Positions 26,689 through 56,549 of a stretch of 64,000 bases of DNA are shown here, piece after piece. This DNA is from a virus: positions 76,252 to 140,251 of IMG/VR virus record IMGVR_UViG_3300045988_132849. One strand, written 5' to 3'. The translations under genes were made by a program, and so were the position numbers. The notes beneath the pieces are model-generated. The model saw nothing but the letters and a program-made list of their open reading frames with translations. It was not told where the DNA came from and made no database searches. Numbering within the stretch: position 1 is the first letter of the stretch; every line of letters starts with the position of its first letter.

Positions 26689-27285
26689 ATGGACGTTAAT
26701 AAATTATTGGTTGTCGTCGATATGCAGAATGATTTCATCGACGGAAGCCTTGGAACCAAAGAAGCACAGGAAATTGTTCCCAAAGTAATTGAGAAAATTA
26801 AAAATTTTGATGGCATTATTGTTACAACAATGGACACACACGATGAAAATTATTTATCTACACAGGAAGGAAAGAATCTTCCAGTAAAGCATTGCATCTG
26901 CGGAGAAGATGGATGGCATTTAAATGAAGAAGTTAGAAAGGCATTATTATCGTCAGAGATGTTTTGTCGCAATGACAAGCAAGAAAATGCTATTTGGCTT
27001 CTTGAGAACTATTGTAAAGAAACATTTGGGTCATTAGAACTTATGGACGATTGTTCTGATGAATTCGGTGAAGATGGTCGGTCTCATCCAGAAGATGTTG
27101 AAATTACCTTAATTGGTCTTTGTACAGATATTTGTGTAATCTCTAATGCAATGTTATTAAAAGCGGCACTTCCAGAGGCAAAGATTCTTGTAGATGCATC
27201 GTGTTGCGCAGGTGTAACACCAGAGAGCCACAAGAACGCACTCGAAGCAATGAAGATGTGTCAGATTGAAGTAATCAATGAGTAA
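26689..27285 (+). CDS. isochorismatase-family hydrolase, possible nicotinamidase (PncA-like), 198 aa
   Basis: LLVVVDMQNDFIDGSLG (Asp), metal-site-like DTHDEN, and LIGLCTDICV (nucleophile Cys) match the isochorismatase/nicotinamidase fold. Confidence 0.6.
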   Translation: MDVNKLLVVVDMQNDFIDGSLGTKEAQEIVPKVIEKIKNFDGIIVTTMDTHDENYLSTQEGKNLPVKHCICGEDGWHLNEEVRKALLSSEMFCRNDKQENAIWLLENYCKETFGSLELMDDCSDEFGEDGRSHPEDVEITLIGLCTDICVISNAMLLKAALPEAKILVDASCCAGVTPESHKNALEAMKMCQIEVINE

Positions 27286-27299
27286 AGGAGTGATGAAGG

Positions 27300-28136
27300 A
27301 TGATTACTATTGGTGGAGTACCAGTTGTTCCAGAATCTTTTCCAGATGGAACACAGAAAATTGGTTTGCCGTTAGGAGCAATGAGATCACGGATTGCAGT
27401 AAATAAATTTGTATCAATTGAATGGCTGTATGAATCAGATAAAGAATTATTTTCGCTATATTGTATTTCAAAAAGTATTCGAGAATATTTCCCACATTTA
27501 TCACAGTGTTTAGTGATGCCGTATATTCCGAATGCAAGATTTGACAGGGTTAAAGATCATAACGAATGTTTTACATTAAAATATTTTGCAGAAATCATCA
27601 ATGAATTAAATTTTAGAAAGGTCATCGTAACAGATCCTCACTCAGATGTTTCTAAAGCATTGATTGATCACCTACAATATATACCAATTAAACTATATAT
27701 TTCTAAGGTTTGCAATAAAGTCCTTAAAGCAGAGCCATCAAGAAATCTCGTAATTTATTTCCCAGATAGCGGATCACTAAAAAGATATTCTGAATTTGTG
27801 TCAGATCATTATCCGATTGTCTATGGAATTAAAAATCGTGATTGGAAGACAGGAGAAATTCTTGGTATTGAGATTCATGGAGATACAGATAAATTAGATG
27901 AGAATACAGCAATTCTAATGATTGATGATATTTGTAGTAAGGGTGGCACATTTTATTATGGATCAAAAGAATTAAGCAAATACGGTTGTAAAGATATGTA
28001 TTTATATGTTAGTCACTGTGAAAATACAATTCTTGATGGCGAATTATTAAAGGAAGATAGTTTGTTTAAAAAAGTGTATACGACACGTAGCATTTTTACA
28101 AAAGAACATGAGAAGGTTGAGGTGTTAGATTTATGA
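27300..28136 (+). CDS. ribose-phosphate pyrophosphokinase (PRPP synthetase)-family enzyme; candidate ADP-ribose pyrophosphokinase (Adps-like) of an NAD reconstitution pathway
   Basis: FPDGTQKI, LVMPYIPNARFDR (vs PRPS PYFGYARQDR), VIVTDPHSD, LVIYFPDSGSLKR, AILMIDDICSKGGTF (PRT type I nucleotide-binding motif). Confidence 0.7.
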   Translation: MITIGGVPVVPESFPDGTQKIGLPLGAMRSRIAVNKFVSIEWLYESDKELFSLYCISKSIREYFPHLSQCLVMPYIPNARFDRVKDHNECFTLKYFAEIINELNFRKVIVTDPHSDVSKALIDHLQYIPIKLYISKVCNKVLKAEPSRNLVIYFPDSGSLKRYSEFVSDHYPIVYGIKNRDWKTGEILGIEIHGDTDKLDENTAILMIDDICSKGGTFYYGSKELSKYGCKDMYLYVSHCENTILDGELLKEDSLFKKVYTTRSIFTKEHEKVEVLDL

Positions 28137-29599
28137 AACAGACAAATCCAATGTTATTAATTGATTTTTATAAAGCAGTTCATGCTGAAATGTTACCAAA
28201 AGGTATTACAAAATCTGTTTCTTATTTTACTCCACGTATGAGCAGGGTAAAACAATGGAACGAAGTCGTGATGTTTGGGTTACAGGGATTCATTAAAGAA
28301 TATCTGATTGATTATTTTAATAAGAATTTCTTTGATCTTAAAGGTGGAGCAGTTACTTCTTACAAGAGAATTATGGACGCAGCTCTTGGAGAAAATGCTT
28401 ATGGATTACAGAAAATCGCAGATCTTTATGAGCTTGGTTATCTTCCGATTGAGATTAAAGCACTTCCCGAAGGAACTTTAGTACCAATGCATGTACCGAT
28501 GTTTAGTATTGAGAATACTCACAAAGATTTTGCATGGTTACCACAGGCATTAGAAAGTTTAATTTCCGCAGAAATGTGGCATCCGATGATTGCTGCGACT
28601 GTCGGGCATACATATAGACAGATCGTTAATAAGTTTTATGAAATGACTTGTGATGATGATATTGTAAAAGCTAAAGCATTAGGGGCTTTCGATTTTCGTG
28701 GCGAAGAATGCTTACAGTCTGCGGTTAAAGCAGGAGCAGGATGGTGTTTATCATTCTTAAATACAGCTACGGTTCCAACAATTCCATATTTAGAGAGAAA
28801 TTATAATTGTGATTGTACGAAAGAACCAGTTGCTTTTGGTAGCCCGTCTACTGAGCATTCGGTTGCGTGTAGTAATTATGCGATTGACGGAGATGAAGAG
28901 ACTCTGATTAAAAGATTACTTACAGAGATTTATCCAAACACAAGCTTCTCCGCAGTATTGGATTCATATGATTATTGGAACGTTGTAGAGAATATTCTTC
29001 CAAAACTCAAGAATGAGATCATGAATCACAATGGATGTTTTCTTGTAAGAGGAGATTCAGGAGATTGTGTAGATGTAGTAACCAGAACGGTATTCAAGTT
29101 ATGGGAAGAATTTGGCGGAACTACGAATAGTAAAGGATACAAAGTATTAGATCCTCATATAAAAGCAATTTACGGAGATTCAATTACAGTGCAGAGATGT
29201 GAGCAGATTTATGACATCTTAGAGAAAAATGGATTCGCAGCAAGCAATGTTGCACTTGGCGTTGGATCATTCTCATTCCAGTGTATTGAAGAAGATAGAG
29301 TTTTGAAACCATTTACAAGAGATACATTTAGTAGCTGTATCAAAGCAACGTATTGCGAGATTGATGGCAAACCATATCCAATTTTCAAGAATCCAAAAGA
29401 TGGCGGATTTAAGAAATCTCAGAGAGGTTTATGTCATGTCTATAAAGAATCAGACGGTAAATTGACATTTAAAGATGGATATACTTCAGAAAATCTTCCA
29501 ATGAATAATCTGCTTGAGACAGTATTTAGAGATGGCAAATTGGTAAAAGAACAGTCATTACAGGAAATTAGAAGAGTTTTAAACGAAGGAGAATTTTAA
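28133..29599 (+). CDS. nicotinamide phosphoribosyltransferase (NAMPT/NadV)-family enzyme; candidate nicotinamide ADP-ribose transferase (Namat-like)
   Basis: 488 aa; N-terminus LLIDFYKAVHAEMLPKGITKSVSYFTPR matches the NAMPT DSYKvtH...ySYfe.R motif; start overlaps the PRPS-like gene. Confidence 0.75.
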   Translation: MKQTNPMLLIDFYKAVHAEMLPKGITKSVSYFTPRMSRVKQWNEVVMFGLQGFIKEYLIDYFNKNFFDLKGGAVTSYKRIMDAALGENAYGLQKIADLYELGYLPIEIKALPEGTLVPMHVPMFSIENTHKDFAWLPQALESLISAEMWHPMIAATVGHTYRQIVNKFYEMTCDDDIVKAKALGAFDFRGEECLQSAVKAGAGWCLSFLNTATVPTIPYLERNYNCDCTKEPVAFGSPSTEHSVACSNYAIDGDEETLIKRLLTEIYPNTSFSAVLDSYDYWNVVENILPKLKNEIMNHNGCFLVRGDSGDCVDVVTRTVFKLWEEFGGTTNSKGYKVLDPHIKAIYGDSITVQRCEQIYDILEKNGFAASNVALGVGSFSFQCIEEDRVLKPFTRDTFSSCIKATYCEIDGKPYPIFKNPKDGGFKKSQRGLCHVYKESDGKLTFKDGYTSENLPMNNLLETVFRDGKLVKEQSLQEIRRVLNEGEF

Positions 29600-30111
29600 T
29601 GATTAAAATTATTGAAGGCGATTTGTTTGATACAAATGCGAAATTTATTTGTCATCAAGTAAATTGTGCAGGGAAAATGGGATCTGGGGTAGCGTTACAG
29701 GTACGACAAAAATATCCGCATGTATATAAAGAATATGAAAAAGTTGCTTCGGAAGATATGTTAGGGGAAGTACAGATCATACCAGTGAATTCAAAATTTA
29801 TTGGACATGAACCAGGAGATATTTGGTGTGGTATGAAAGTAAAAGGGTTCAGGGAAACACAATGGATTTGTAATTTATTTGCTCAAAAGAGTTATGGATA
29901 TGACGGCAAGCAGTATACTTCAAATGAAGCTTTGAGACAGTGCTTTAAAAAACTTGCAGGAATGGTGCATGAGAAAAACAATAACTTTGGACAAACAATC
30001 GCTATGCCATATAAAATTGGATGTTGTCGTGGAGGATCTGATTGGAGTGATGTTGCCAATATTATCGAAGAAGAATTTAAAGATTGTAATGTAGAATTAT
30101 GGAGGTTATAA
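29599..30111 (+). CDS. macrodomain protein of the TARG1/OARD1/DarG type (ADP-ribosyl hydrolase), 170 aa
   Basis: IIEGDLFDTNAKFICHQVNCAGKMGSGVALQVRQKY and IAMPYKIGCCRGGSDWSDVANIIEEEF align with human TARG1 [37 protein letters not shown] / [26 protein letters not shown] (from memory). Confidence 0.7.
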   Translation: MIKIIEGDLFDTNAKFICHQVNCAGKMGSGVALQVRQKYPHVYKEYEKVASEDMLGEVQIIPVNSKFIGHEPGDIWCGMKVKGFRETQWICNLFAQKSYGYDGKQYTSNEALRQCFKKLAGMVHEKNNNFGQTIAMPYKIGCCRGGSDWSDVANIIEEEFKDCNVELWRL

Positions 30112-30114
30112 AAC

Positions 30115-30885
30115 ATGAGTTTTAATGCAGCAGAAACCAAAGACAGATTAGTACAGTGGATCAGAGATTGGTTTGAAATTAATGGCAAAGGATGTAATGC
30201 CATTGTAGGAATTTCAGGAGGCAAGGATTCATCAGTGGTTGCAGCCTTATGTGTAGAAGCACTTGGTAAGGATCGAGTAATTGGAATTATGATGCCACAG
30301 GGTGTGCAGTCGGACATTGAGTATTCTCAAATGCTATGTGATCATCTAGGAATTGAACATTACACAGTTAATATTTTTAATGCTTGCAGAGATATTAAAC
30401 ATGAAATCAGAGATGAATTAGGTGGTAAATGGAGTAAACAGAGTGCTACAAATTTACCTGCTCGTATCCGTATGGCTACATTATATGCTTTTGCACAGAG
30501 TATGAATGGAAGAGTAGCAAATACATGTAATTTATCTGAAGATTGGGTCGGATATGCAACAAGATATGGAGATTCGGCTGGAGATTTTAGTCCATTAAGT
30601 GATCTGACTGTGACAGAAGTTAAAGCAATTGGTAAAGTTCTGGGACTTCCAACAGAGTTAATCGAAAAAACTCCTACTGATGGGTTATGTGGCAAGACAG
30701 ATGAAGATAATCTTGGATTTACATACGAAGTGTTGGATGAATATATCAGAACAGGTGAATGCAAGGATAAAGTAGTGAGACAGATCATTGATGAAATGCA
30801 TGAGAAGAATGTATTTAAACTTGCTCCAATGCCTAAATTTATATCTGGCATGTGGATCGAGGCAGGAATGGAGTTGGATGATTAA
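30115..30885 (+). CDS. nadE: NH3-dependent NAD+ synthetase
   Basis: PP-loop IVGISGGKDSSVVAAL; ~256 aa, typical size. Confidence 0.85.
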   Translation: MSFNAAETKDRLVQWIRDWFEINGKGCNAIVGISGGKDSSVVAALCVEALGKDRVIGIMMPQGVQSDIEYSQMLCDHLGIEHYTVNIFNACRDIKHEIRDELGGKWSKQSATNLPARIRMATLYAFAQSMNGRVANTCNLSEDWVGYATRYGDSAGDFSPLSDLTVTEVKAIGKVLGLPTELIEKTPTDGLCGKTDEDNLGFTYEVLDEYIRTGECKDKVVRQIIDEMHEKNVFKLAPMPKFISGMWIEAGMELDD

Positions 30886-38822: not shown

Positions 38823-39179
38823 ATGAACCACTTTTTATATATTGAATCACGAGAAGAAGAGGATTCATCGCTTGACTCTAAGCGTGTTTTATTGAATGAA
38901 GAAAACTACAAACATATTATTGCATCATTAGATCATTATCCACCGACAGCACAAGAAGTTAAGAAAGCAATTTGTATTTTGGTAGGAAGATTGATTTACA
39001 GAAGTGTTTGGAATATGGAAACTGATATTGATAGTTTGAATATGAGTTATTCTCCGCCAAAAGAAATGACGATTGAAGAAATTGAAAAGGAACTTGGTTA
39101 TAAAGTTAAGCTTGTAAAGGAGGAAAAAGAACAAAAACTAAGAAGGGCTATGAAAACAACAGTATTGAAAACTGTCTAA
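38823..39179 (+). CDS. hypothetical protein (118 aa)
   Basis: AAAGGAGAGATAAC-ATG. Confidence 0.5.
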   Translation: MNHFLYIESREEEDSSLDSKRVLLNEENYKHIIASLDHYPPTAQEVKKAICILVGRLIYRSVWNMETDIDSLNMSYSPPKEMTIEEIEKELGYKVKLVKEEKEQKLRRAMKTTVLKTV

Positions 39180-39208
39180 ATCATTATAAATCAGCACAAC
39201 AATTATTT

Positions 39209-39838
39209 ATGGAACTGTATAATACAGGGGACCTTTACTTGATAGGCGGAGCCCTAAGAGAATTTTTAGAAACAGGCAACATTAAAGATGCAAAAGATAT
39301 TGACGTTGTGATTGATACAAAAGAAACAGATAAGTTTGATGCAGTTTGTAAAAAATATCATGCCAGAAAGAACTTTTTTGATGGATATAAAATTACCTAC
39401 CATGACATTGTTGTTGATGTATGGAGAATAGAGCAAACATGGGCATATAGAGAGAATATCATTAACTGTTCTGAAGAAGATTATCTAAAGAATTTACCTT
39501 TTACTGTATTTTTCAACTTAGATTCTTTAGTGTACGACATAAAAAGAAACGTATGGTATGATGAGCTTTATATAAAGGCAAAGGAAAGCAATACATTAGA
39601 TATTGTATTAGAAGAAAATCCACATATTGATCTAAATATTTTGAGGGGAATGATTTTTCAAAACAGATATCATATGAAATATTCTATTCGTCTTAAAGAG
39701 TTGATCTTGGATCACTATAAGAAAGAGAGAGAATATGAAAAGATACTGCATGACATTCAATTTAAACGATATAAGAAAGAAATTTTGTCTTTGAATGATA
39801 TTAAAAATCAATTGGATTATATCTTTTCAAAAAGATAG
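39209..39838 (+). CDS. minimal Pol-beta-type nucleotidyltransferase of the tRNA-nucleotidyltransferase / poly(A) polymerase family (head-domain-sized, 209 aa)
   Basis: LYLIGGALREFLETGNIKDAKDIDVVIDT matches the CCA-enzyme motif A (yfVGGaVRD....kDiDiat); FTVFFN is motif-B-like. Confidence 0.55.
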   Translation: MELYNTGDLYLIGGALREFLETGNIKDAKDIDVVIDTKETDKFDAVCKKYHARKNFFDGYKITYHDIVVDVWRIEQTWAYRENIINCSEEDYLKNLPFTVFFNLDSLVYDIKRNVWYDELYIKAKESNTLDIVLEENPHIDLNILRGMIFQNRYHMKYSIRLKELILDHYKKEREYEKILHDIQFKRYKKEILSLNDIKNQLDYIFSKR

Positions 39839-39888
39839 ATTAGTAGATGTTTGTATATAAACAGAGAAATGAGAAGGAGGACTAAAGA

Positions 39889-40842
39889 ATGAAATGTTTT
39901 TATCATGTGGATCAAGACGGAATCGTGTCTGGATTCTACGTCAGAAAAGCTTGCGAACAGCGAGGCTTGGCATTTGAACCAGAGGACTTTCGAAAAATTA
40001 ATTACGGTATGAAATTCCCGTTTCATGACATTAAGCAGGATGAATTTGTATTCATTGTAGACTACAGCATTGAGCCAGAAGAGATGTGGCAGTTGCTTAG
40101 TATCACAAAGAATGTATTCTGGATCGACCATCATCAATCTACGATTGAAACGTATAAAGATTTCAAGTGTGATGTAAAAGGCATTCGAATTACTGGAGCA
40201 GGTATTTCGGGAGCGAATTTGACATGGTTATATTTTAAAGAAATGTGTGACGAAGATTGGGAGCAAATTGAGAGGACAGATGAGAAAAATGTAAAAAGAT
40301 TACTCAATATATATAAATATAAAGAAGATTATCCAAAACTGGCAGAATATACAGCCATGTGGGATACATTTTATTTTGGTGCAACGTCAAAAAAATTCAT
40401 AAAAGCATTTCACTATGCATTTGAATCGTATGATTTTGATGCGTTAAGTCCATTGCTAAACACGTTAAATGAAGATCAAGGAATTTATGAAGCAGCAAAA
40501 ATTATTGGTGATATGATAACAGATGGCTTATCAATTATTGAGTATTTAGCAGCAAATGCAGAACAATATCTTAGAGCATATGGTTTTGAAACCACATTTG
40601 AGGGACATAAAGTCTATGCGATCAATCGAGCATTAATCAATTCTGATTTCTTTGAATCTATTGATGCTTCTAAATATGATATGTTCATTGGTTTTTCATT
40701 CAATGGTAGTATGTGGGAATATCAGTTACGATCCGCAGAACAGGATAAAGTAAATGTGTATGAGCTTGCTGTGAAATATGGTGGTGGCGGTCACCCAAAT
40801 GCAGCTGGGTTCAGGAGCGATAAATATGTATTAGGAGTGTGA
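39889..40842 (+). CDS. DHH-DHHA1 phosphoesterase, NrnA-like (nanoRNase / pAp phosphatase family), 317 aa
   Basis: Motif I HVDQDGIVSG, motif III VFWIDHHQS, DHHA1 GGGGHPNAAGF. Confidence 0.75.
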   Translation: MKCFYHVDQDGIVSGFYVRKACEQRGLAFEPEDFRKINYGMKFPFHDIKQDEFVFIVDYSIEPEEMWQLLSITKNVFWIDHHQSTIETYKDFKCDVKGIRITGAGISGANLTWLYFKEMCDEDWEQIERTDEKNVKRLLNIYKYKEDYPKLAEYTAMWDTFYFGATSKKFIKAFHYAFESYDFDALSPLLNTLNEDQGIYEAAKIIGDMITDGLSIIEYLAANAEQYLRAYGFETTFEGHKVYAINRALINSDFFESIDASKYDMFIGFSFNGSMWEYQLRSAEQDKVNVYELAVKYGGGGHPNAAGFRSDKYVLGV

Positions 40843-40845
40843 TGT

Positions 40846-41646
40846 ATGTCAAGAAAAAATACAAGAGAAATTGAACTTGCTTTTAGTAAAAATAGAGATC
40901 CAGATTGGGAAGCCGATGTGGAAATTTATAGAAGAAGAAAGTTCGAAGTAGTGCGTGGTATTTGTCTGGGAGATGAGTTTGCTGAAATTGAATCTTTAGA
41001 ATACAAAAATTGTGACGAGTTAGATGAAATGTATTATCGTTTTGATTATAATTTAAAAATGCTTATGAAGTCTTATTTGCATGAATATACAGATTATGTG
41101 CCAATCGAAACAATGCATATTACATCTCCTGCAATATTGTGTTGTGATGAAATTGTATTAAAAAACGGTGAGAAAATTTCTATTGATAACATATGTATTG
41201 ATAAATCAAACGGCAATGAAGTTTATAAATTATATTCTAATAGTACATATACAGATGATGTATATTATGAATCTACTAAAGCATTAGTTTATGAATTGGC
41301 TAGTAAAGATGTTTGCGAGGCTATACATATAATGAAAGATATAATGGACAAAGCGTATATAAAAGCAAGAAATGAACGAAGCATACATCCTTTTATTAGC
41401 CACCTGTTTAACGACCCTCCAATTCCATGTATTAAAAATAAATATTCTATACATGATTTAATGGGTACATTAAAATGCAGTGGTGATATTTATGAAGAAA
41501 TAAAAAAAGAAGTCCCAAATGCTATAGATATGATTGTGCCTCATCCTGGAAGACATGCAGAGTATTATTTTGGGTTAGATTATACAGATGAAGTAGAGCA
41601 ATTTATTAAAGAACAGGAGGTTAAGAAATGTGAAGAAACTAAATGA
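40846..41646 (+). CDS. hypothetical protein (266 aa)
   Basis: ORF. Confidence 0.5.
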   Translation: MSRKNTREIELAFSKNRDPDWEADVEIYRRRKFEVVRGICLGDEFAEIESLEYKNCDELDEMYYRFDYNLKMLMKSYLHEYTDYVPIETMHITSPAILCCDEIVLKNGEKISIDNICIDKSNGNEVYKLYSNSTYTDDVYYESTKALVYELASKDVCEAIHIMKDIMDKAYIKARNERSIHPFISHLFNDPPIPCIKNKYSIHDLMGTLKCSGDIYEEIKKEVPNAIDMIVPHPGRHAEYYFGLDYTDEVEQFIKEQEVKKCEETK

Positions 41647-42181
41647 TGAACAGCGAAAGCTGATTGAAGATAATTATTCTTTGATTTGGCATTTGCATGA
41701 GAAGTATTTTACAAAATTTAAAGATTTTGATACATATATGGATCTTGGTCATATGGCAATTTGCAAAGCAGCATTAAAATGGGATGAGTCTAAAGGTAAT
41801 TTTGGGACGTATTTTAGATGGGTATTACAGTCAGAAATTAATAAATATTATATAAAATGGCATAGCCCAACAGAGAAAATGAACAGAAATGCGGAATCAT
41901 TGGATACACCTGTTGACGAAAGAGTTGACGCAGAAGAATTAACAATTGGTAGTTTGCTTGTGAGTAACGATGACGTAGAGAGTCAAGTACTAACAACAGT
42001 ATATTACCAAGGTGAATTTAACAAATTGTCAGACAAGCAGAAGAAAATTATATATATGTTACTTGATGATATTGAACATAAATACATAGCCAAAGAATTT
42101 GGAAAGAGTATTCAATGGGTAAGTTGGCAACTTGGTAATATTAAAAAATTAATGCATAGGGCAAAGGCGGTGAGACTATGA
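41630..42181 (+). CDS. sigma-70-family RNA polymerase sigma factor (phage-encoded), 183 aa
   Basis: Region 2-like: LIEDNYSLIWHLHEKY...DLGHMAICKAALKWDESKGNFGTYFRWVLQSEINKY; C-terminal HTH. Paralog of the 48276 gene (both begin LNDEQRKL). Confidence 0.65.
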   Translation: MKKLNDEQRKLIEDNYSLIWHLHEKYFTKFKDFDTYMDLGHMAICKAALKWDESKGNFGTYFRWVLQSEINKYYIKWHSPTEKMNRNAESLDTPVDERVDAEELTIGSLLVSNDDVESQVLTTVYYQGEFNKLSDKQKKIIYMLLDDIEHKYIAKEFGKSIQWVSWQLGNIKKLMHRAKAVRL

Positions 42182-43283: not shown

Positions 43284-43815
43284 ATTAATAAAACGCCCAC
43301 GTTCTGATAACGATAAATGTACTAAATATGATGTTGTGCTTGATAAAGAGTATACTGTAGAAGAATTTATTGATGCGATTGCAGATGGAAGAAATGGAAC
43401 GCATGGTCAAATCACAATAAAAAATGATAAAGAAGCCATTGAATCATTTGTCTATAATATCGAGAGTATTGATTATAGACATTGTAAACTTCAAAATGCT
43501 GAAGAAAAAATTAAACAAGTATGGGCAGATGGTAGCTGGTTAAAAATCAATTATACTATCTTACTTGAAAACAAACAGGAAACACAAAAAGGTGCGCTCA
43601 GATTTATTGTTAAGAAGCCAAATGGGGAAGAATCAGTGGTGGTTATTTTTAAGAACAAATCCGATGGCACATATTCATTTGTTAATTTGACTAAGGAGCA
43701 TATTTGTTCATGTAAATTTAAAACAATCGATGAAGCCATTCAGGATATGAATGACCGACTAAAGAAAGGATTGATTAAGTCCTATGTTATGAAAGGAGAA
43801 AGAAATAGTGAGTGA
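43276..43815 (+). CDS. hypothetical protein (179 aa)
   Basis: AGTAGGTGG RBS, ATG 43276. Confidence 0.45.
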   Translation: MFKLIKRPRSDNDKCTKYDVVLDKEYTVEEFIDAIADGRNGTHGQITIKNDKEAIESFVYNIESIDYRHCKLQNAEEKIKQVWADGSWLKINYTILLENKQETQKGALRFIVKKPNGEESVVVIFKNKSDGTYSFVNLTKEHICSCKFKTIDEAIQDMNDRLKKGLIKSYVMKGERNSE

Positions 43816-44287
43816 CGTATTTCAGATCTATCTTGCAGGCGGTATGCAGGATCTGTCGTTTGAAGAACAGGATGCGTGGAGAAAAGAAATTTGTAGGTGT
43901 ATCAATAGTTGCTGCGAGAAATCATTGGTTGATGTAAAACCAGTTAGTATTATCAATCCAGTAGATTATTACAATTTCGAAAACGACAAACATGAGACAG
44001 AAAAAGAAGTTATGCGATTTGATACTCGTCTTGTTAAGAATAGTGATTTGATTATTGTGTATGCAAATGATCCAAAGAGTATTGGCACATCTATGGAAAT
44101 TGCTATTGCTCATGAAAACAATATTCCAGTATTGATCTTAAATGATGGTAATGAAAAACTTCATTCTTGGTGGATTGAGATGTCTGATAGGGTGTTTAGT
44201 GAGTATATTGGTCTGTGTCAATATGTTGTAGATTTTTATTTAGAGATGAAACATTATCGTTGTGTACATAATGTGACAATAAAATAG
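43808..44287 (+). CDS. nucleoside 2-deoxyribosyltransferase-like protein (159 aa)
   Basis: IYLAGGM...EIAIAHENNIPVLIL matches the NDT/Rcl-family YLAGP ... E.a.A...g.Pv pattern. Confidence 0.55.
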   Translation: MSDVFQIYLAGGMQDLSFEEQDAWRKEICRCINSCCEKSLVDVKPVSIINPVDYYNFENDKHETEKEVMRFDTRLVKNSDLIIVYANDPKSIGTSMEIAIAHENNIPVLILNDGNEKLHSWWIEMSDRVFSEYIGLCQYVVDFYLEMKHYRCVHNVTIK

Positions 44288-48275: not shown

Positions 48276-48815
48276 ATGTCGTTGAAATTAAATGACGAAC
48301 AGAGAAAATTAGTGGAACAAAATCATAATTTGATTTACTCTGCTATGACAAAATGCGGTATCCGCAGACAAGATTTTGATGACTATTATGGATTCGCTGC
48401 TATTGGGTTGTGTAAGGCAACAATTGATTATGATGAATCCAAAGCTAAATCATTTTCTACATATGCATATAAATGTATGCAAAAAGAAATTATAGCATAT
48501 ACTCGATGGAGATTTGCAGATAAAAGAGATGAACGACTTACCTTATCGTACAATCAGTTAATGAATGATTTAGATGAAGACGAAAAAGAATATTCTTTTT
48601 TGTTAGCTGATAAAAAAAATAATGAAAAAAAATTAATTTTCTTTTTGTGTTTTGATGAGCAAATGCGAATACTAAATAATAAGGACAGGTTAATTATTAA
48701 TTTAAAGGCAAAAGGGTATACGAACGAAGAAATAGGAAATACCCTTGGTGTTACATATCAAGCAATTCAATATCAATTGAAAAAAATTAAAAATAAATTA
48801 ATCCCATCCTTATAA
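48276..48815 (+). CDS. sigma-70-family RNA polymerase sigma factor (phage-encoded), 179 aa
   Basis: Region 2 DYYGFAAIGLCKATIDYDESKAKSFSTYAYKCMQKEI; region-4 HTH GYTNEEIGNTLGVTYQAIQYQLKKI. Confidence 0.7.
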   Translation: MSLKLNDEQRKLVEQNHNLIYSAMTKCGIRRQDFDDYYGFAAIGLCKATIDYDESKAKSFSTYAYKCMQKEIIAYTRWRFADKRDERLTLSYNQLMNDLDEDEKEYSFLLADKKNNEKKLIFFLCFDEQMRILNNKDRLIINLKAKGYTNEEIGNTLGVTYQAIQYQLKKIKNKLIPSL

Positions 48816-54800: not shown

Positions 54801-56549
54801 GTGCCAGAAATTTTAAGAAATAGAGGGATTGATGATTATGAAACGTATTTGAACCTTGATGATAGCGTAATTCAAGATTATGCCGATTTAGAGGGTATCA
54901 AAAATGCAGTAAATACAACGATTTTTGCACTTAAAAATGGACATAAAATCGGTATTTTAATTGACGAGGACGTAGACGGATTTTGCTCGGCTTCAATGAC
55001 ATATATGTACTTAAATCGCATTAATAATGAACTTTATGATGGTAAGAGTAACATTTGTTACTTATTACATAAAAAAGCAAAAGCTCACGGATTAAGTGAA
55101 GATATTACTATACCTGAAGACGTGAAACTTTTAATAATTCCAGATGCAGGCACCAATGATGTAGCACAATGTACAGAACTTGTAGACCGTGGTGTACAGA
55201 TTGTAATTCTTGATCACCATGAGAAAGAAGAATCTGAAGAAATAATGCCAGAGGAAGTTGTAATTGTAAATAATCAGTGTAGTCCACGATATAGAAATAA
55301 AGACTTATGTGGGGCTGGGATTGTCTATAGATTTTTACAGGCAATGGATGATGAGTTATGGATTAATTATGCAGATGATTATTTAGATTTATGTGCATTA
55401 GCCAATATTGGCGATGTGATGGATATGAGATCCTTTGAGACACGTCGTTTAGTCAATAAAGGAATACAGAATATTCAGAATGAATGCTTCAAAGCGCTGA
55501 TCAATGCACAAGATTATTCAATGCACAGTATTGTTAATATTCATAATATTCAGTGGTATATCGTTCCAATTATCAATGGTATGGTGCGATTTGGTTCTTT
55601 GAAAGATAAAGAATTGGTTTTTAGAGCATTTATCGAAGACTATGAGGTATTTGATTATAAGAAAAGAGCAACAAAAAACAATCCTGCGGAAGTAATCAAA
55701 GAGAACATTTACGATCGTGCTGCTCGATTATGCAAAAATGCCAAAGGCAAACAGGATCGTCAAAAGAAAAAGATGGTTCCAATTATTATGAAAGAGGCTG
55801 AAAAAGATAAAGATAGCAAGATTACTATTCTTGATGTTACAGAAACATTAGATAGCAGTTTGACAGGATTGGTTGCTATCAAGATCGCTGAAGATATGAA
55901 CAGACCATGCTTATTATTACGAAAGCATATTAATCCAGAAACAGGATTAGTAGAAATGAGTGGTAGCGCAAGGAATGTAGACCATAGTCCGATTGATAGT
56001 TTGAAAGATGTGATATCCGAAACAAATTCATTTTTATGGGCAAAAGGTCATGCCAATGCATTTGGATGTTCGACAGATAATATCTCTGGAGCAATCACAG
56101 AATTAAACGACAAGCTGAAAGATATTAAATATGATGCAACTTATAGAGTTGATTTCATTGTAGATGCTTGCAGATTAGATTTTGAACTACTACAGGAAAT
56201 GTCTAAATTAGATGATATTCGTGGGCAGGGTATTGATGATCCGATGATTGCTGTTAAGAATATTACATTAAATAAGGAAGAGATTAATGTTGTTGGTAAG
56301 AAAATGGATACAATCCAATTTAAAATTAATGATATTCCATGTGTGATGTTCAAGTGCGATGAGAAGAATAAAATCTATGATTGGATTATGAATGATTTCT
56401 CTGACGAAGGCACAGTTATATTTGAATTAGTAGGAACCGCACAAACTAATATTTTTAATGGTATTAGGCAATATCAAATTGCGGTTAATGATATTAATGT
56501 TCTGAGCATCACAACAGATGAAGAATTAGACGAAGATATTTGGGATTGA
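54801..56549 (+). CDS. RecJ-like DHH-family ssDNA exonuclease (582 aa), GTG start
   Basis: GILIDEDVDGFCSASM (motif I), IIPDAGTND (II), VILDHHE (III). Confidence 0.7.
   Translation: MPEILRNRGIDDYETYLNLDDSVIQDYADLEGIKNAVNTTIFALKNGHKIGILIDEDVDGFCSASMTYMYLNRINNELYDGKSNICYLLHKKAKAHGLSEDITIPEDVKLLIIPDAGTNDVAQCTELVDRGVQIVILDHHEKEESEEIMPEEVVIVNNQCSPRYRNKDLCGAGIVYRFLQAMDDELWINYADDYLDLCALANIGDVMDMRSFETRRLVNKGIQNIQNECFKALINAQDYSMHSIVNIHNIQWYIVPIINGMVRFGSLKDKELVFRAFIEDYEVFDYKKRATKNNPAEVIKENIYDRAARLCKNAKGKQDRQKKKMVPIIMKEAEKDKDSKITILDVTETLDSSLTGLVAIKIAEDMNRPCLLLRKHINPETGLVEMSGSARNVDHSPIDSLKDVISETNSFLWAKGHANAFGCSTDNISGAITELNDKLKDIKYDATYRVDFIVDACRLDFELLQEMSKLDDIRGQGIDDPMIAVKNITLNKEEINVVGKKMDTIQFKINDIPCVMFKCDEKNKIYDWIMNDFSDEGTVIFELVGTAQTNIFNGIRQYQIAVNDINVLSITTDEELDEDIWD

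Follow-up and report, generated by a model that had tools for sequence, protein, structure and literature searches.

A partner-less CloB-family nucleotidyltransferase in a phage, candidate anti-Clover gene, next to an unrelated DHH phosphoesterase

We analysed a stretch of 64,000 nucleotides (nt) of viral DNA (IMG/VR virus record IMGVR_UViG_3300045988_132849, positions 76,252 to 140,251; hereafter the window), in which a gene for a 209-residue nucleotidyltransferase (NTase) is closely followed by a gene for a 317-residue DHH-DHHA1 phosphoesterase (hereafter DHH). An original prediction, made from the letters of the window, had suggested that the two could make up one module for the repair of tRNA 3' ends. 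We lean, by a modest degree, towards another reading of the pair, in which the NTase would be a phage copy of CloB, the accessory enzyme of the bacterial defence system Clover, carried without its partner CloA and directed against Clover, and DHH would be a separate gene of an RNA-repair-type block. The evidence found here comprises the membership of the NTase in the CloB family, the operon linkage of that family in bacteria, the orphan state of the phage gene, the variable slot in which it sits, its intact catalytic residues and the purifying selection acting on it. A CloB-family member in a viral, partner-less setting is new here and implies a role opposite to the bacterial one, counter-defence as against defence. 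Positions are those of the window unless another locus is named; compared loci and proteins are cited by their L and P numbers.

Results

Bacterial relatives of the NTase directly follow CloA-type dGTPases

A pattern scan covering a single genome from each GTDB species, in which neighbouring genes were not used for selection, yielded 38 NTase-family loci. They come from Lachnospiraceae, Oscillospiraceae, Clostridium, Acetivibrio, Desulfosporosinus, Brevibacillus, Oceanobacillus, Sphingobacterium, Pyrinomonadaceae, Sedimentisphaerales and many Gammaproteobacteria. By tblastn, an HD protein of about 480 residues (a CloA-type dGTPase), whole or as a remnant, was found immediately before the NTase homologue in all 38. 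About 30 of these upstream dGTPase open reading frames (ORFs) are intact, with lengths of 454-547 residues and gaps of -50 to +130 nt; the gammaproteobacterial pairs mostly overlap by about 11-14 nt, and by 28-29 nt in two cases. The HD protein is recognised as a dGTP triphosphohydrolase by TIGR01353 (E 1e-96) and by the PADLOC dGTPase model (E 4.6e-71), and scores 431 bits against PRK01096, which has a cut-off of 439.

The published description of Clover (Yamaguchi et al., bioRxiv 2025; PMC12265719) provides the functional frame for this arrangement. CloA is a dGTPase switched on by dTTP, and CloB is an accessory Pol-beta NTase that makes 5'-triphosphothymidyl-3'5'-thymidine (p3diT), which binds and suppresses CloA until dTTP induced by phage overrides the block; operons with a dead CloB are toxic. 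At 20 uM p3diT, more than 200 uM dTTP is needed to overcome the inhibition. The same study counted more than 650 dNTPase-NTase operons (dNTP, deoxynucleoside triphosphate) in Proteobacteria, Bacillus, Clostridia and Myxococcia.

The link from our loci to this system runs through structures of CloA. PDB entries 9p8s-9p8v, four 8-chain entries titled 'DNTP triphosphohydrolase' and neighbours of the paper's 9P8W, can be taken as Salmonella CloA: of the 20 residues that PMC12265719 names, 19 match the chain (offset +2). These entries are the best PDB match of the NTase-adjacent dGTPases from L007 (E 5e-73), L020 (E 8e-75) and the gammaproteobacterium L048 (E 7e-149, the next best match being at 7e-49). 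E. coli Dgt was matched by NTase-adjacent dGTPases at 1e-39 to 3e-53, the latter value being that of L007. The NTase that lies after the L048 CloA is 31% identical to the window NTase. Since the neighbouring dGTPases best match Salmonella CloA, the sequence evidence is that the NTase family is CloB and its bacterial context Clover, an assignment made via the adjacent CloA and not by direct alignment with CloB, of which the PDB has no chain. A separate attempt to reach the Clover operon of E. coli or Salmonella by way of a degraded Morganella locus was abandoned when blastn against 5,426 E. coli genomes matched housekeeping dgt only.

In three loci from Lachnospiraceae and Hungatella (L019, L030 and L041), cloA is reduced to a C-terminal remnant of 30-130 residues beside cloB. 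L019 and L030 retain an undamaged cloB ORF (227-229 residues), and L041 matches over only about 100 residues; in two enterobacterial loci both genes are degraded. The loci with cloA remnants show the pattern expected if cloA without cloB is toxic and the reverse is harmless.

The phage NTase has the fold of class II enzymes and the active site of CloB

The 209-residue ORF was found where the original prediction had placed it (Table 1), together with all the motifs quoted from it: GGALRE at residues 13-18, DIDVVIDT at 30-37 and FTVFFN at 98-103. Structure prediction settles the fold of this protein, as it does that of DHH. The AlphaFold2 model of the NTase has a predicted local distance difference test (pLDDT) score of 90.6, and its first 45 PDB matches in Foldseek are exclusively class II tRNA nucleotidyltransferases and poly(A) polymerase, with E values of about 6e-7, query template-modelling (TM) scores of 0.5-0.66 and identities of 12-19%. 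It also matches viral tRNA NTases in BFVD. Profile searches were less sensitive: the Pfam PolyA_pol head domain stayed below its gathering score (E 0.082; 13.7 bits, with a cut-off of 23; match limited to residues 9-49), and PHROG, NCBIfam and PADLOC profiles gave no match. A distant homologue, P0035, does clear the PolyA_pol cut-off with 25.8 bits. Neither phmmer nor a 21-sequence profile reached any NTase among PDB sequences, which fold comparison alone did, and DNA and tblastn searches of 50,697 GenBank phages found nothing. The family is small, with 35 relatives in a set of 5.8 billion proteins; tblastn against plasmids added homologues from Bacillus megaplasmids.

The catalytic residues are intact in the structural model. 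Across 44 family sequences, G13, G14, R17, D30, D32 and D70 are each kept in 97-100%, and the layout of the Pol-beta triad D30/D32/D70 agrees with the strands of the model. The Pol-beta active-site motif of CloB as defined in PMC12265719, [D/E]h[D/E]...h[D/E]h, is matched by D30-I-D32 and V-D70-V and kept across the 44 sequences. More broadly, the window NTase retains every position that is conserved in at least 85% of the 44-sequence alignment of phage and operon proteins (G7, L11, G13, G14, R17, D30, D32, N55, F57, G59, D70, W72, T77, W78, A79, L96, T99, N103, D105, Y121, D131, V133, L134, E135, N137, P138, R146, S159 and Y188).

What the NTase shares with class II CCA-, A- and CC-adding enzymes and bacterial poly(A) polymerase (PF01743; PDB 1vfg, 4wbz, 3wfq, 3h39 and 3aql) is the head and neck fold, and with it a motif A built of a helix, GGxxR[DE] and then DxD. 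It differs from them in its low identity, in ending after the neck, and in the genomic partner of its family, which is a dGTPase and not a set of tRNA-repair genes. The body and tail domains, which bind the acceptor and T arms of tRNA, are missing, and the NTase covers only 0.25-0.41 (TM score normalised to the target) of class II targets of 340-460 residues. In class II enzymes, RRD is motif B, which recognises ribose, and EDxxR is motif D, which templates C and A addition. Neither string occurs in the 209 residues, and at the corresponding places the family carries LPxTVFxNxD and LDIVLEENP. By analogy with class II enzymes, the loss of RRD would fit a dNTP substrate. The description of the protein as a minimal CCA/PAP-family (PAP, poly(A) polymerase) NTase therefore holds for the fold and the carboxylates; the family is CloB and not that of CCA-adding enzymes.

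Viral copies are orphans kept by purifying selection

No CloA homologue was found by tblastn in the window or in 80 IMG/VR loci that carry DHH. The two-gene arrangement of CloA with CloB is thus a property of the bacterial family, and the window NTase stands outside it as an orphan. A scan of IMG/VR for CloA returned a single contig of 47 kb (L063/L065), which carries a complete cloA-cloB operon. Just upstream of cloA on that contig (region 3371-6621) lies a homologue, 37% identical, of the unannotated 317-residue protein that follows the orphan NTase in L001 (8802-9755).

Neighbour joining places the phage orphans (window, L059, L010, L011, L001 and L062) in one clade inside Lachnospiraceae/Clostridia CloB. 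A second orphan, L004, is on a mobile element and groups with Oscillospiraceae CloB. The third, L064 (5911-6510 on a 138 kb IMG/VR contig), is distant, with 27% identity; NIN replaces its DxD and T its third Asp, and judging from these substitutions it is probably catalytically dead. Pairwise ratios of nonsynonymous to synonymous substitution rates (dN/dS) among the phage orphans are 0.09-0.17 at dS of 0.7-2.0, and somewhat higher, 0.31, for the L001 lineage. The low dN/dS therefore indicates that the NTase gene has been kept by purifying selection without cloA.

The neighbours of the orphans change with distance. Relatives at 68% identity (L001-L003 and L062) are followed by a protein that is coincidentally also of 317 residues; it was considered as a DHH partner in L001 and dismissed, being unrelated to DHH by BLASTP. 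A 321-residue gene of L004 was likewise checked and is not DHH. Relatives at 41-46% identity have other neighbours again. In L001 a deoxyribosyltransferase-like gene lies directly upstream of the orphan NTase, and TnpB/IS605-family genes flank the NTase in this lineage (L001 1609-2631 and 5710-7290).

The NTase occupies a variable slot shared with anti-defence genes

The gene content between the upstream 103-residue gene and DHH was catalogued in 50 sister loci (L073-L123); the equivalent stretch of the window is 39180-39888. Two tandem small Tad2-like genes fill this slot in 27 of the 50 loci, and a 137-residue deoxyribosyltransferase-like gene is present in 24, 13 times alongside the tandem pair. 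The NTase occurs there alone in six loci, and six slots are empty. Both tandem proteins clear the cut-off of 25 bits for PF11195, 'Thoeris anti-defense 2-like', with scores of 34.2 and 42.5. The NTase slot is a hypervariable accessory site whose alternative cargo belongs to a known anti-defence class, and it behaves as an anti-defence hot spot.

Exchange at this site is also seen from the side of DHH. An identical DHH protein (P0070) follows three different genes, namely the 103-residue gene in L012, the deoxyribosyltransferase-like gene in L013 and the NTase in L014, and a TnpB insertion stands ahead of the DHH variant P0041. TnpB/IS605-family genes were noted beside the slot in L015 (3556-5184) and L016 (3359-4984). 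Such genes may be the vehicles of cassette exchange.

NTase and DHH are not co-conserved

The 80 DHH loci from IMG/VR, scored by tblastn, fall into 51 close (at least 79% identity) and 29 distant ones (36-47%). The NTase is present in six of the close loci and in none of the distant ones. The pair is accordingly confined to a minority of sister phages, and NTase homologues of 68% identity or less adjoin unrelated genes. From these sequence comparisons, the pairing is incidental, two unrelated genes standing side by side, and the module that the original prediction had built on it is not supported, a lack of co-conservation being what that prediction had itself named as a refuting result. The idea that the NTase re-adds CCA is likewise unsupported, given its CloB family, the missing body and tail domains, the missing RRD and EDxxR, and the dGTPase partners of its homologues. 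An origin of the NTase in place, from the CCA gene found ahead of DHH in other phages, was also rejected: hhalign of the NTase family with a genuine phage CCA enzyme aligned motif A only.

DHH is an NrnA-like phosphoesterase of a conserved block

The DHH gene was correctly delimited in the original prediction, with HVDQDG at residues 6-11, DHH at 80-82 and GGGGH at 298-302. D10, D58, D80-H81-H82, D159 and G298-H302 are invariant in 24 DHH homologues, and D8 is nearly so. The Pfam DHH and DHHA1 profiles scored below their cut-offs (20.1 and 21.5 bits); PHROG_4771, 'DHH phosphoesterase', matched at E 3.6e-35. The assignment to the NrnA-like DHH-DHHA1 type stood, with complete motifs: the model (pLDDT 90.4) has NrnA/Pde2, DhhP, Rv2837c and TM1595 as its top Foldseek matches (E about 1e-9), followed by PggH, GdpP and RecJ-Cdc45. 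DHH thus shares the two-lobed fold and the catalytic positions of NrnA, Pde2, DhhP and Rv2837c, and differs from them in its identity of 12-16%, in being phage-encoded and in its linkage to a sigma-like factor and RlaP. The family is larger than that of the NTase, with 451 relatives in the 5.8-billion-protein set. A larger DHH-family protein, a RecJ-like single-stranded DNA exonuclease (54801-56549; phrog_2484, E 9e-145), is encoded in the replication module of the window; therefore the 317-residue DHH is not the RecJ of this phage.

DHH opens a block that ends with an HTH_3 gene (Table 1), and 46 of the 51 close loci also have a downstream deoxyribosyltransferase-like gene. Several nucleoside 2-deoxyribosyltransferase-like genes surround the block, one at 43808-44287 in the window and the slot gene of L013/L103. 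Such genes could act on the pool of deoxynucleotides, which would matter to a defence that senses dTTP. The RlaP-family protein of the block points to repair: RlaP adds one or two nucleoside monophosphates to damaged RNA 3'-OH ends and is required to restore heavily damaged tRNA (PMC12776372).

Distant phages draw the connection to repair closer. In L068 (1669-6778) RlaP, a gene without assignment, a 451-residue CCA-adding enzyme (PolyA_pol, E 5e-38; PolyA_pol_RNAbd, HD and tRNA_NucTran2_2), DHH (41% identical) and a Thg1-like protein follow one another; the L068 RlaP is 41% identical to that of the window over the N-terminal 150 or so residues. RlaP and CCA genes lie upstream of DHH in six of the 29 distant loci, with CCA adjacent to DHH in five, and Thg1 is within 3 kb of DHH in two other distant loci. 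The RlaP/CCA/DHH(/Thg1) cluster of L068 recurs in L136, L137, L141, L144, L146 and L151, and in phage EL DHH is flanked by RNase H and an RNA ligase. In the close relatives of the window, the roughly 6 kb around DHH held neither a CCA enzyme nor Thg1, and neither was seen near DHH in the window, a search that did not extend to RNA ligase or the rest of the window. Because distant phages place DHH beside full-length CCA enzymes and Thg1, a role in RNA-end repair is plausible for DHH.

The window carries an N-terminally shortened NTase allele

The start codon used by the 228-residue homologues is still present in the window but is now out of frame, cut off from the body of the ORF by a 2-nt insertion (Table 1), so that its reading frame stops after 9 codons at 39177-39179. 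The upstream small gene has in addition lost its own stop, TAA having become CAA in this window only, and gains 15 codons that run through the vestigial NTase start. No Shine-Dalgarno sequence precedes the remaining start at ATG 39209. Expression of this allele is uncertain because the insertion removed the original start together with its ribosome-binding site. Programmed frameshifting over the insertion was considered and rejected, there being no slippery heptamer, and a -1 slip of Lys-tRNA would land on GAA.

The same AC insertion is aligned in L014 and L058, and the 209-residue ORF is found in all of L056-L061. The protein itself recurs in L014 and six IMG/VR contigs (100% or 99.5% identical) and belongs to a cluster of 40 member sequences. 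Because the insertion and the ORF recur in this way, a sequencing error in a single assembly is unlikely. The L001 lineage (L001, 7970-8001; also L002 and L003) has independently lost the same N-terminal stretch of about 23 residues, here through a CAA to TAA nonsense change three codons before the same internal Met. A full-length sister allele is found in L062, and the L001-type truncated form is present on 53 contigs. Either the N-terminal helix is dispensable or the truncated alleles are decaying.

Genomic setting

All genes of the window are on the plus strand, GC content is 31-37% and GC skew is positive throughout. The window covers the early and replication region of a phage, with genes for DNA polymerase, an exonuclease V/Dda-like helicase, the RecJ-like exonuclease, a DnaB-like helicase and a Toprim protein; Ant/Bro anti-repressors, an integrase-family protein, PcfJ and two sigma-like factors are also encoded. 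The two sigma-70-like factors (48276-48815 and 41630-42181) are about 30% identical to each other, which suggests phage-directed reprogramming of transcription. About 10 kb upstream of the NTase lies a cluster for salvage of NAD (Table 1), which presumably resembles the NAD+ reconstitution that phages use as counter-defence against NAD-depleting systems.

IMG/VR contigs 142-166 kb long encode the NTase and DHH proteins at 95-100% identity, and GenBank phages have nothing similar to them at the DNA level. No tRNA genes were found in the window. A scan for promoters and terminators over 36.5-44.5 kb gave counts at or below the shuffled expectation and is uninformative on operon structure.

Table 1. 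Coordinates of the NTase and DHH genes, of the conserved block and of other features of the window.
Feature	Position	Strand	Remarks
NAD-salvage cluster	26689-30885	+	about 10 kb upstream of the NTase, same early region
Isochorismatase/nicotinamidase-like	26689-27285	+	
Unknown	27300-28136	+	
NamPT-like	28133-29599	+	phrog_448, E 3e-159
Macro domain gene	29599-30111	+	
NAD synthase	30115-30885	+	
Upstream small gene, 118 residues	38823..39179	+	103 residues in sister phages; ends at TAA 39177-39179
Vestigial original 5' end of the NTase	39150..39179	+	ATG 39150 after AAGAAGGG; encodes MKTTVLK as in 228-residue homologues
2-nt 'AC' insertion	about 39171..39172	+	relative to L010 and L011 (228-residue forms); splits original start from ORF body
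Orphan CloB-family Pol-beta NTase, 209 residues	39209..39838	+	head and neck of the class II NTase fold
NTase catalytic codon D30	39296-39298	+	
NTase catalytic codon D32	39302-39304	+	
NTase catalytic codon D70	39416-39418	+	
Stand-alone DHH-DHHA1 (NrnA-like) phosphoesterase, 317 residues	39889..40842	+	strong ribosome-binding site AGAAGGAGGA; first gene of block
Protein with no detectable family, 266 residues	40846..41646	+	variable block member; a 175-residue protein instead in some relatives
Sigma-70-like factor, 183 residues	41630..42181	+	after DHH in 51/51 close and 13/29 distant loci
RlaP-family (PF10127) RNA-repair nucleotidyltransferase, 277 residues	42178..43011	+	PF10127, E 5.8e-23; near DHH in 49/51 close loci
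HTH_3 protein, 89 residues	43014..43283	+	block end; in 45/51 close loci

Discussion

From these observations we infer a product, a target and an anti-defence effect for the phage NTase. A phage lineage would have captured cloB, without cloA, from hosts of the Lachnospiraceae/Clostridia type. At an early stage of infection, the phage CloB would make p3diT, or a relative of it particular to the clade, and this extra inhibitor would add to the pool made by host CloB and raise the dTTP threshold for activation of CloA. CloA would then stay suppressed, and dGTP would be preserved for phage replication. By analogy with the published system, we give this mechanism, in which a phage NTase makes the inhibitory nucleotide of Clover, close to an even chance.

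The case for it draws on what the window NTase has in common with CloB (PMC12265719): the Pol-beta active site, the similar small size, all family-conserved residues, and homologues in Clostridia, Bacilli, Bacteroidota, Acidobacteriota and Gammaproteobacteria that directly follow a CloA-type dGTPase. It differs from CloB in being phage-encoded, with no cloA in the window and a place in a slot shared with anti-defence genes. It is also N-terminally truncated, with a putative product and target, and the inhibitor pocket of clostridial CloA is half conserved.

Known phage proteins offer partial parallels. T7 Gp1.2 inhibits E. coli Dgt. The proposed outcome is the same for the phage NTase, a host dGTPase held inactive so that phage DNA synthesis continues; Gp1.2, however, is a stoichiometric protein inhibitor, whereas the NTase would instead synthesise the host's own inhibitory nucleotide. 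Tad1/2, Acb1 and Apyc1 are likewise accessory early genes directed against nucleotide-signal immunity, and Tad2-like genes use the very slot of the NTase, but these proteins remove or sequester activating signals and the NTase would add an inhibitory one. That orphan viral CloB acts as counter-defence by adding an 'off' signal, in place of destroying or sponging an 'on' signal, is an idea we put forward tentatively.

Several points weigh against an anti-Clover role. The tie to the characterised CloB proteins of Salmonella SA20044414, E. coli H5 and Xanthomonas is indirect, through CloA neighbours, and CloB chemistry is that of the published Clover system and would be carried over by analogy to clostridial and phage CloB. 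The Lachnospiraceae CloA of L020 keeps only 5 of the 10 contacts of the Salmonella p3diT pocket, and both base-reading residues are partly changed (Q311R, N75A), with 8 of 9 residues of the dTTP site and 6 of 6 of the catalytic site conserved; judging from these residues, the inhibitory signal in the Lachnospiraceae/Clostridia clade may be a different dinucleotide. An anti-Clover role would also presuppose Clover in the host. The NTase is found in only 6 of 51 sister phages, the window allele is without its first 19 or so residues and without a Shine-Dalgarno sequence, and the second N-terminal loss, in L001, could mean decay rather than function. For the other half of the reading, the role of DHH is suggested by gene neighbourhood.

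The half-conserved pocket also speaks for a product that acts on something other than host CloA, be it as a decoy or regulator of another defence or in the nucleotide metabolism of the phage. Pol-beta NTases readily switch substrate, the L001 NTase stands beside a deoxyribosyltransferase-like gene, and a 317-residue gene without annotation recurs there and beside the Clover operon of L063. We regard another target as improbable, given that coupling to CloA was found in all 38 bacterial genomes sampled and that the phage copies have kept the family-conserved residues unaltered, an argument for unchanged chemistry. Decay deserves more weight and is still unlikely: the window NTase would be a remnant with no current function, its start and ribosome-binding site lost to the frameshift at 39171-39172, with ATG 39150 now stopping after a few codons and ATG 39209 lacking a Shine-Dalgarno sequence. 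The independent nonsense loss in the L001 lineage, with its higher dN/dS, and the distant viral orphan L064 without DxD fit such a course. Yet what is left of the gene is an undamaged frame of 209 codons with all family-conserved residues in place, and both truncated forms recur (the same 209-residue protein in L014 and six contigs, with its cluster of 40, and the L001-type form on 53 contigs). Shortening to one and the same internal Met in two separate events could also point to a short form that is tolerated, or even favoured, and the upstream ORF ends 30 nt before ATG 39209, which makes re-initiation possible.

For the two genes together, the healing module of the original prediction, in which DHH trims or dephosphorylates tRNA 3' ends and the 209-residue NTase re-adds CCA, has become very improbable. 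The NTase does have a CCA/PAP-type head and neck fold with intact carboxylates, the DHH family directly follows a CCA-adding enzyme in other phages, and RlaP lies three genes downstream. Those CCA enzymes, however, are full-length proteins of the 451-residue PolyA_pol, HD and tRNA_NucTran2_2 type to which the similarity of the NTase ends at motif A, the NTase has neither the parts that bind tRNA nor RRD and EDxxR, its homologues go with dGTPases and not with RNA-repair genes, and the pair is found in few close and no distant loci. What survives of the repair idea concerns DHH by itself, supported by RlaP in 49 of the 51 close loci and by CCA and Thg1 in distant phages; it does not extend to the NTase or to the pair. 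On this neighbourhood, DHH may heal or trim RNA 3' ends, or clear short oligonucleotides, in the course of RNA (tRNA) repair, a role that we propose with some reserve as the likeliest. The alternative for DHH is a counter-defence phosphodiesterase that destroys immune oligonucleotides (those of CBASS, cyclic oligoadenylates of type III CRISPR, c-di-AMP or pApA). Its nearest folds, Pde2/NrnA, GdpP, PggH and TM1595, cleave pApA, pGpG or c-di-AMP, such a role has been predicted for the DHH phosphodiesterases of jumbo phages (PMC7824862), and DHH adjoins the anti-defence slot. We consider signal degradation somewhat unlikely, since DHH is tied to RlaP, CCA-adding enzymes and Thg1 in distant phages and is next to an RNA ligase in phage EL, and since a general hydrolysis of dinucleotides would also destroy p3diT and so oppose the neighbouring NTase. 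Phage RNA-repair cassettes of RlaP, CCA, Thg1 and RNA ligase have been described (Iyer et al. 2021, PMC7824862); the window resembles them in having RlaP three genes after DHH, and DHH is not a described member of them. The recurrent RlaP/CCA/DHH/Thg1 clusters suggest that phage tRNA-repair cassettes include a stand-alone DHH phosphoesterase as a component so far unrecognised. A CCA-enzyme-like fold and adjacency are in turn insufficient to infer a tRNA-repair module.

The Clover preprint (PMC12265719) and one 2026 review mention no phage-encoded, prophage or orphan CloB and no evasion of Clover, which the later Nature version might cover. If the anti-Clover reading is true, the phage gene should rescue the lethality of a Clover operon with a dead cloB. 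It would also mean that mobile elements have captured cloB without cloA at least twice independently (in the window clade and in L004, with L064 as a dead third), a recurrent strategy.

Clover, Hailong and Panoptes are reportedly all bacterial defences restrained by an inhibitory nucleotide. Defences gated in this way have a predicted weakness, in that a virus may supply the inhibitor itself, and the orphan phage cloB in a slot otherwise used by Tad2-like genes is a testable candidate for such a virus-supplied restraint.

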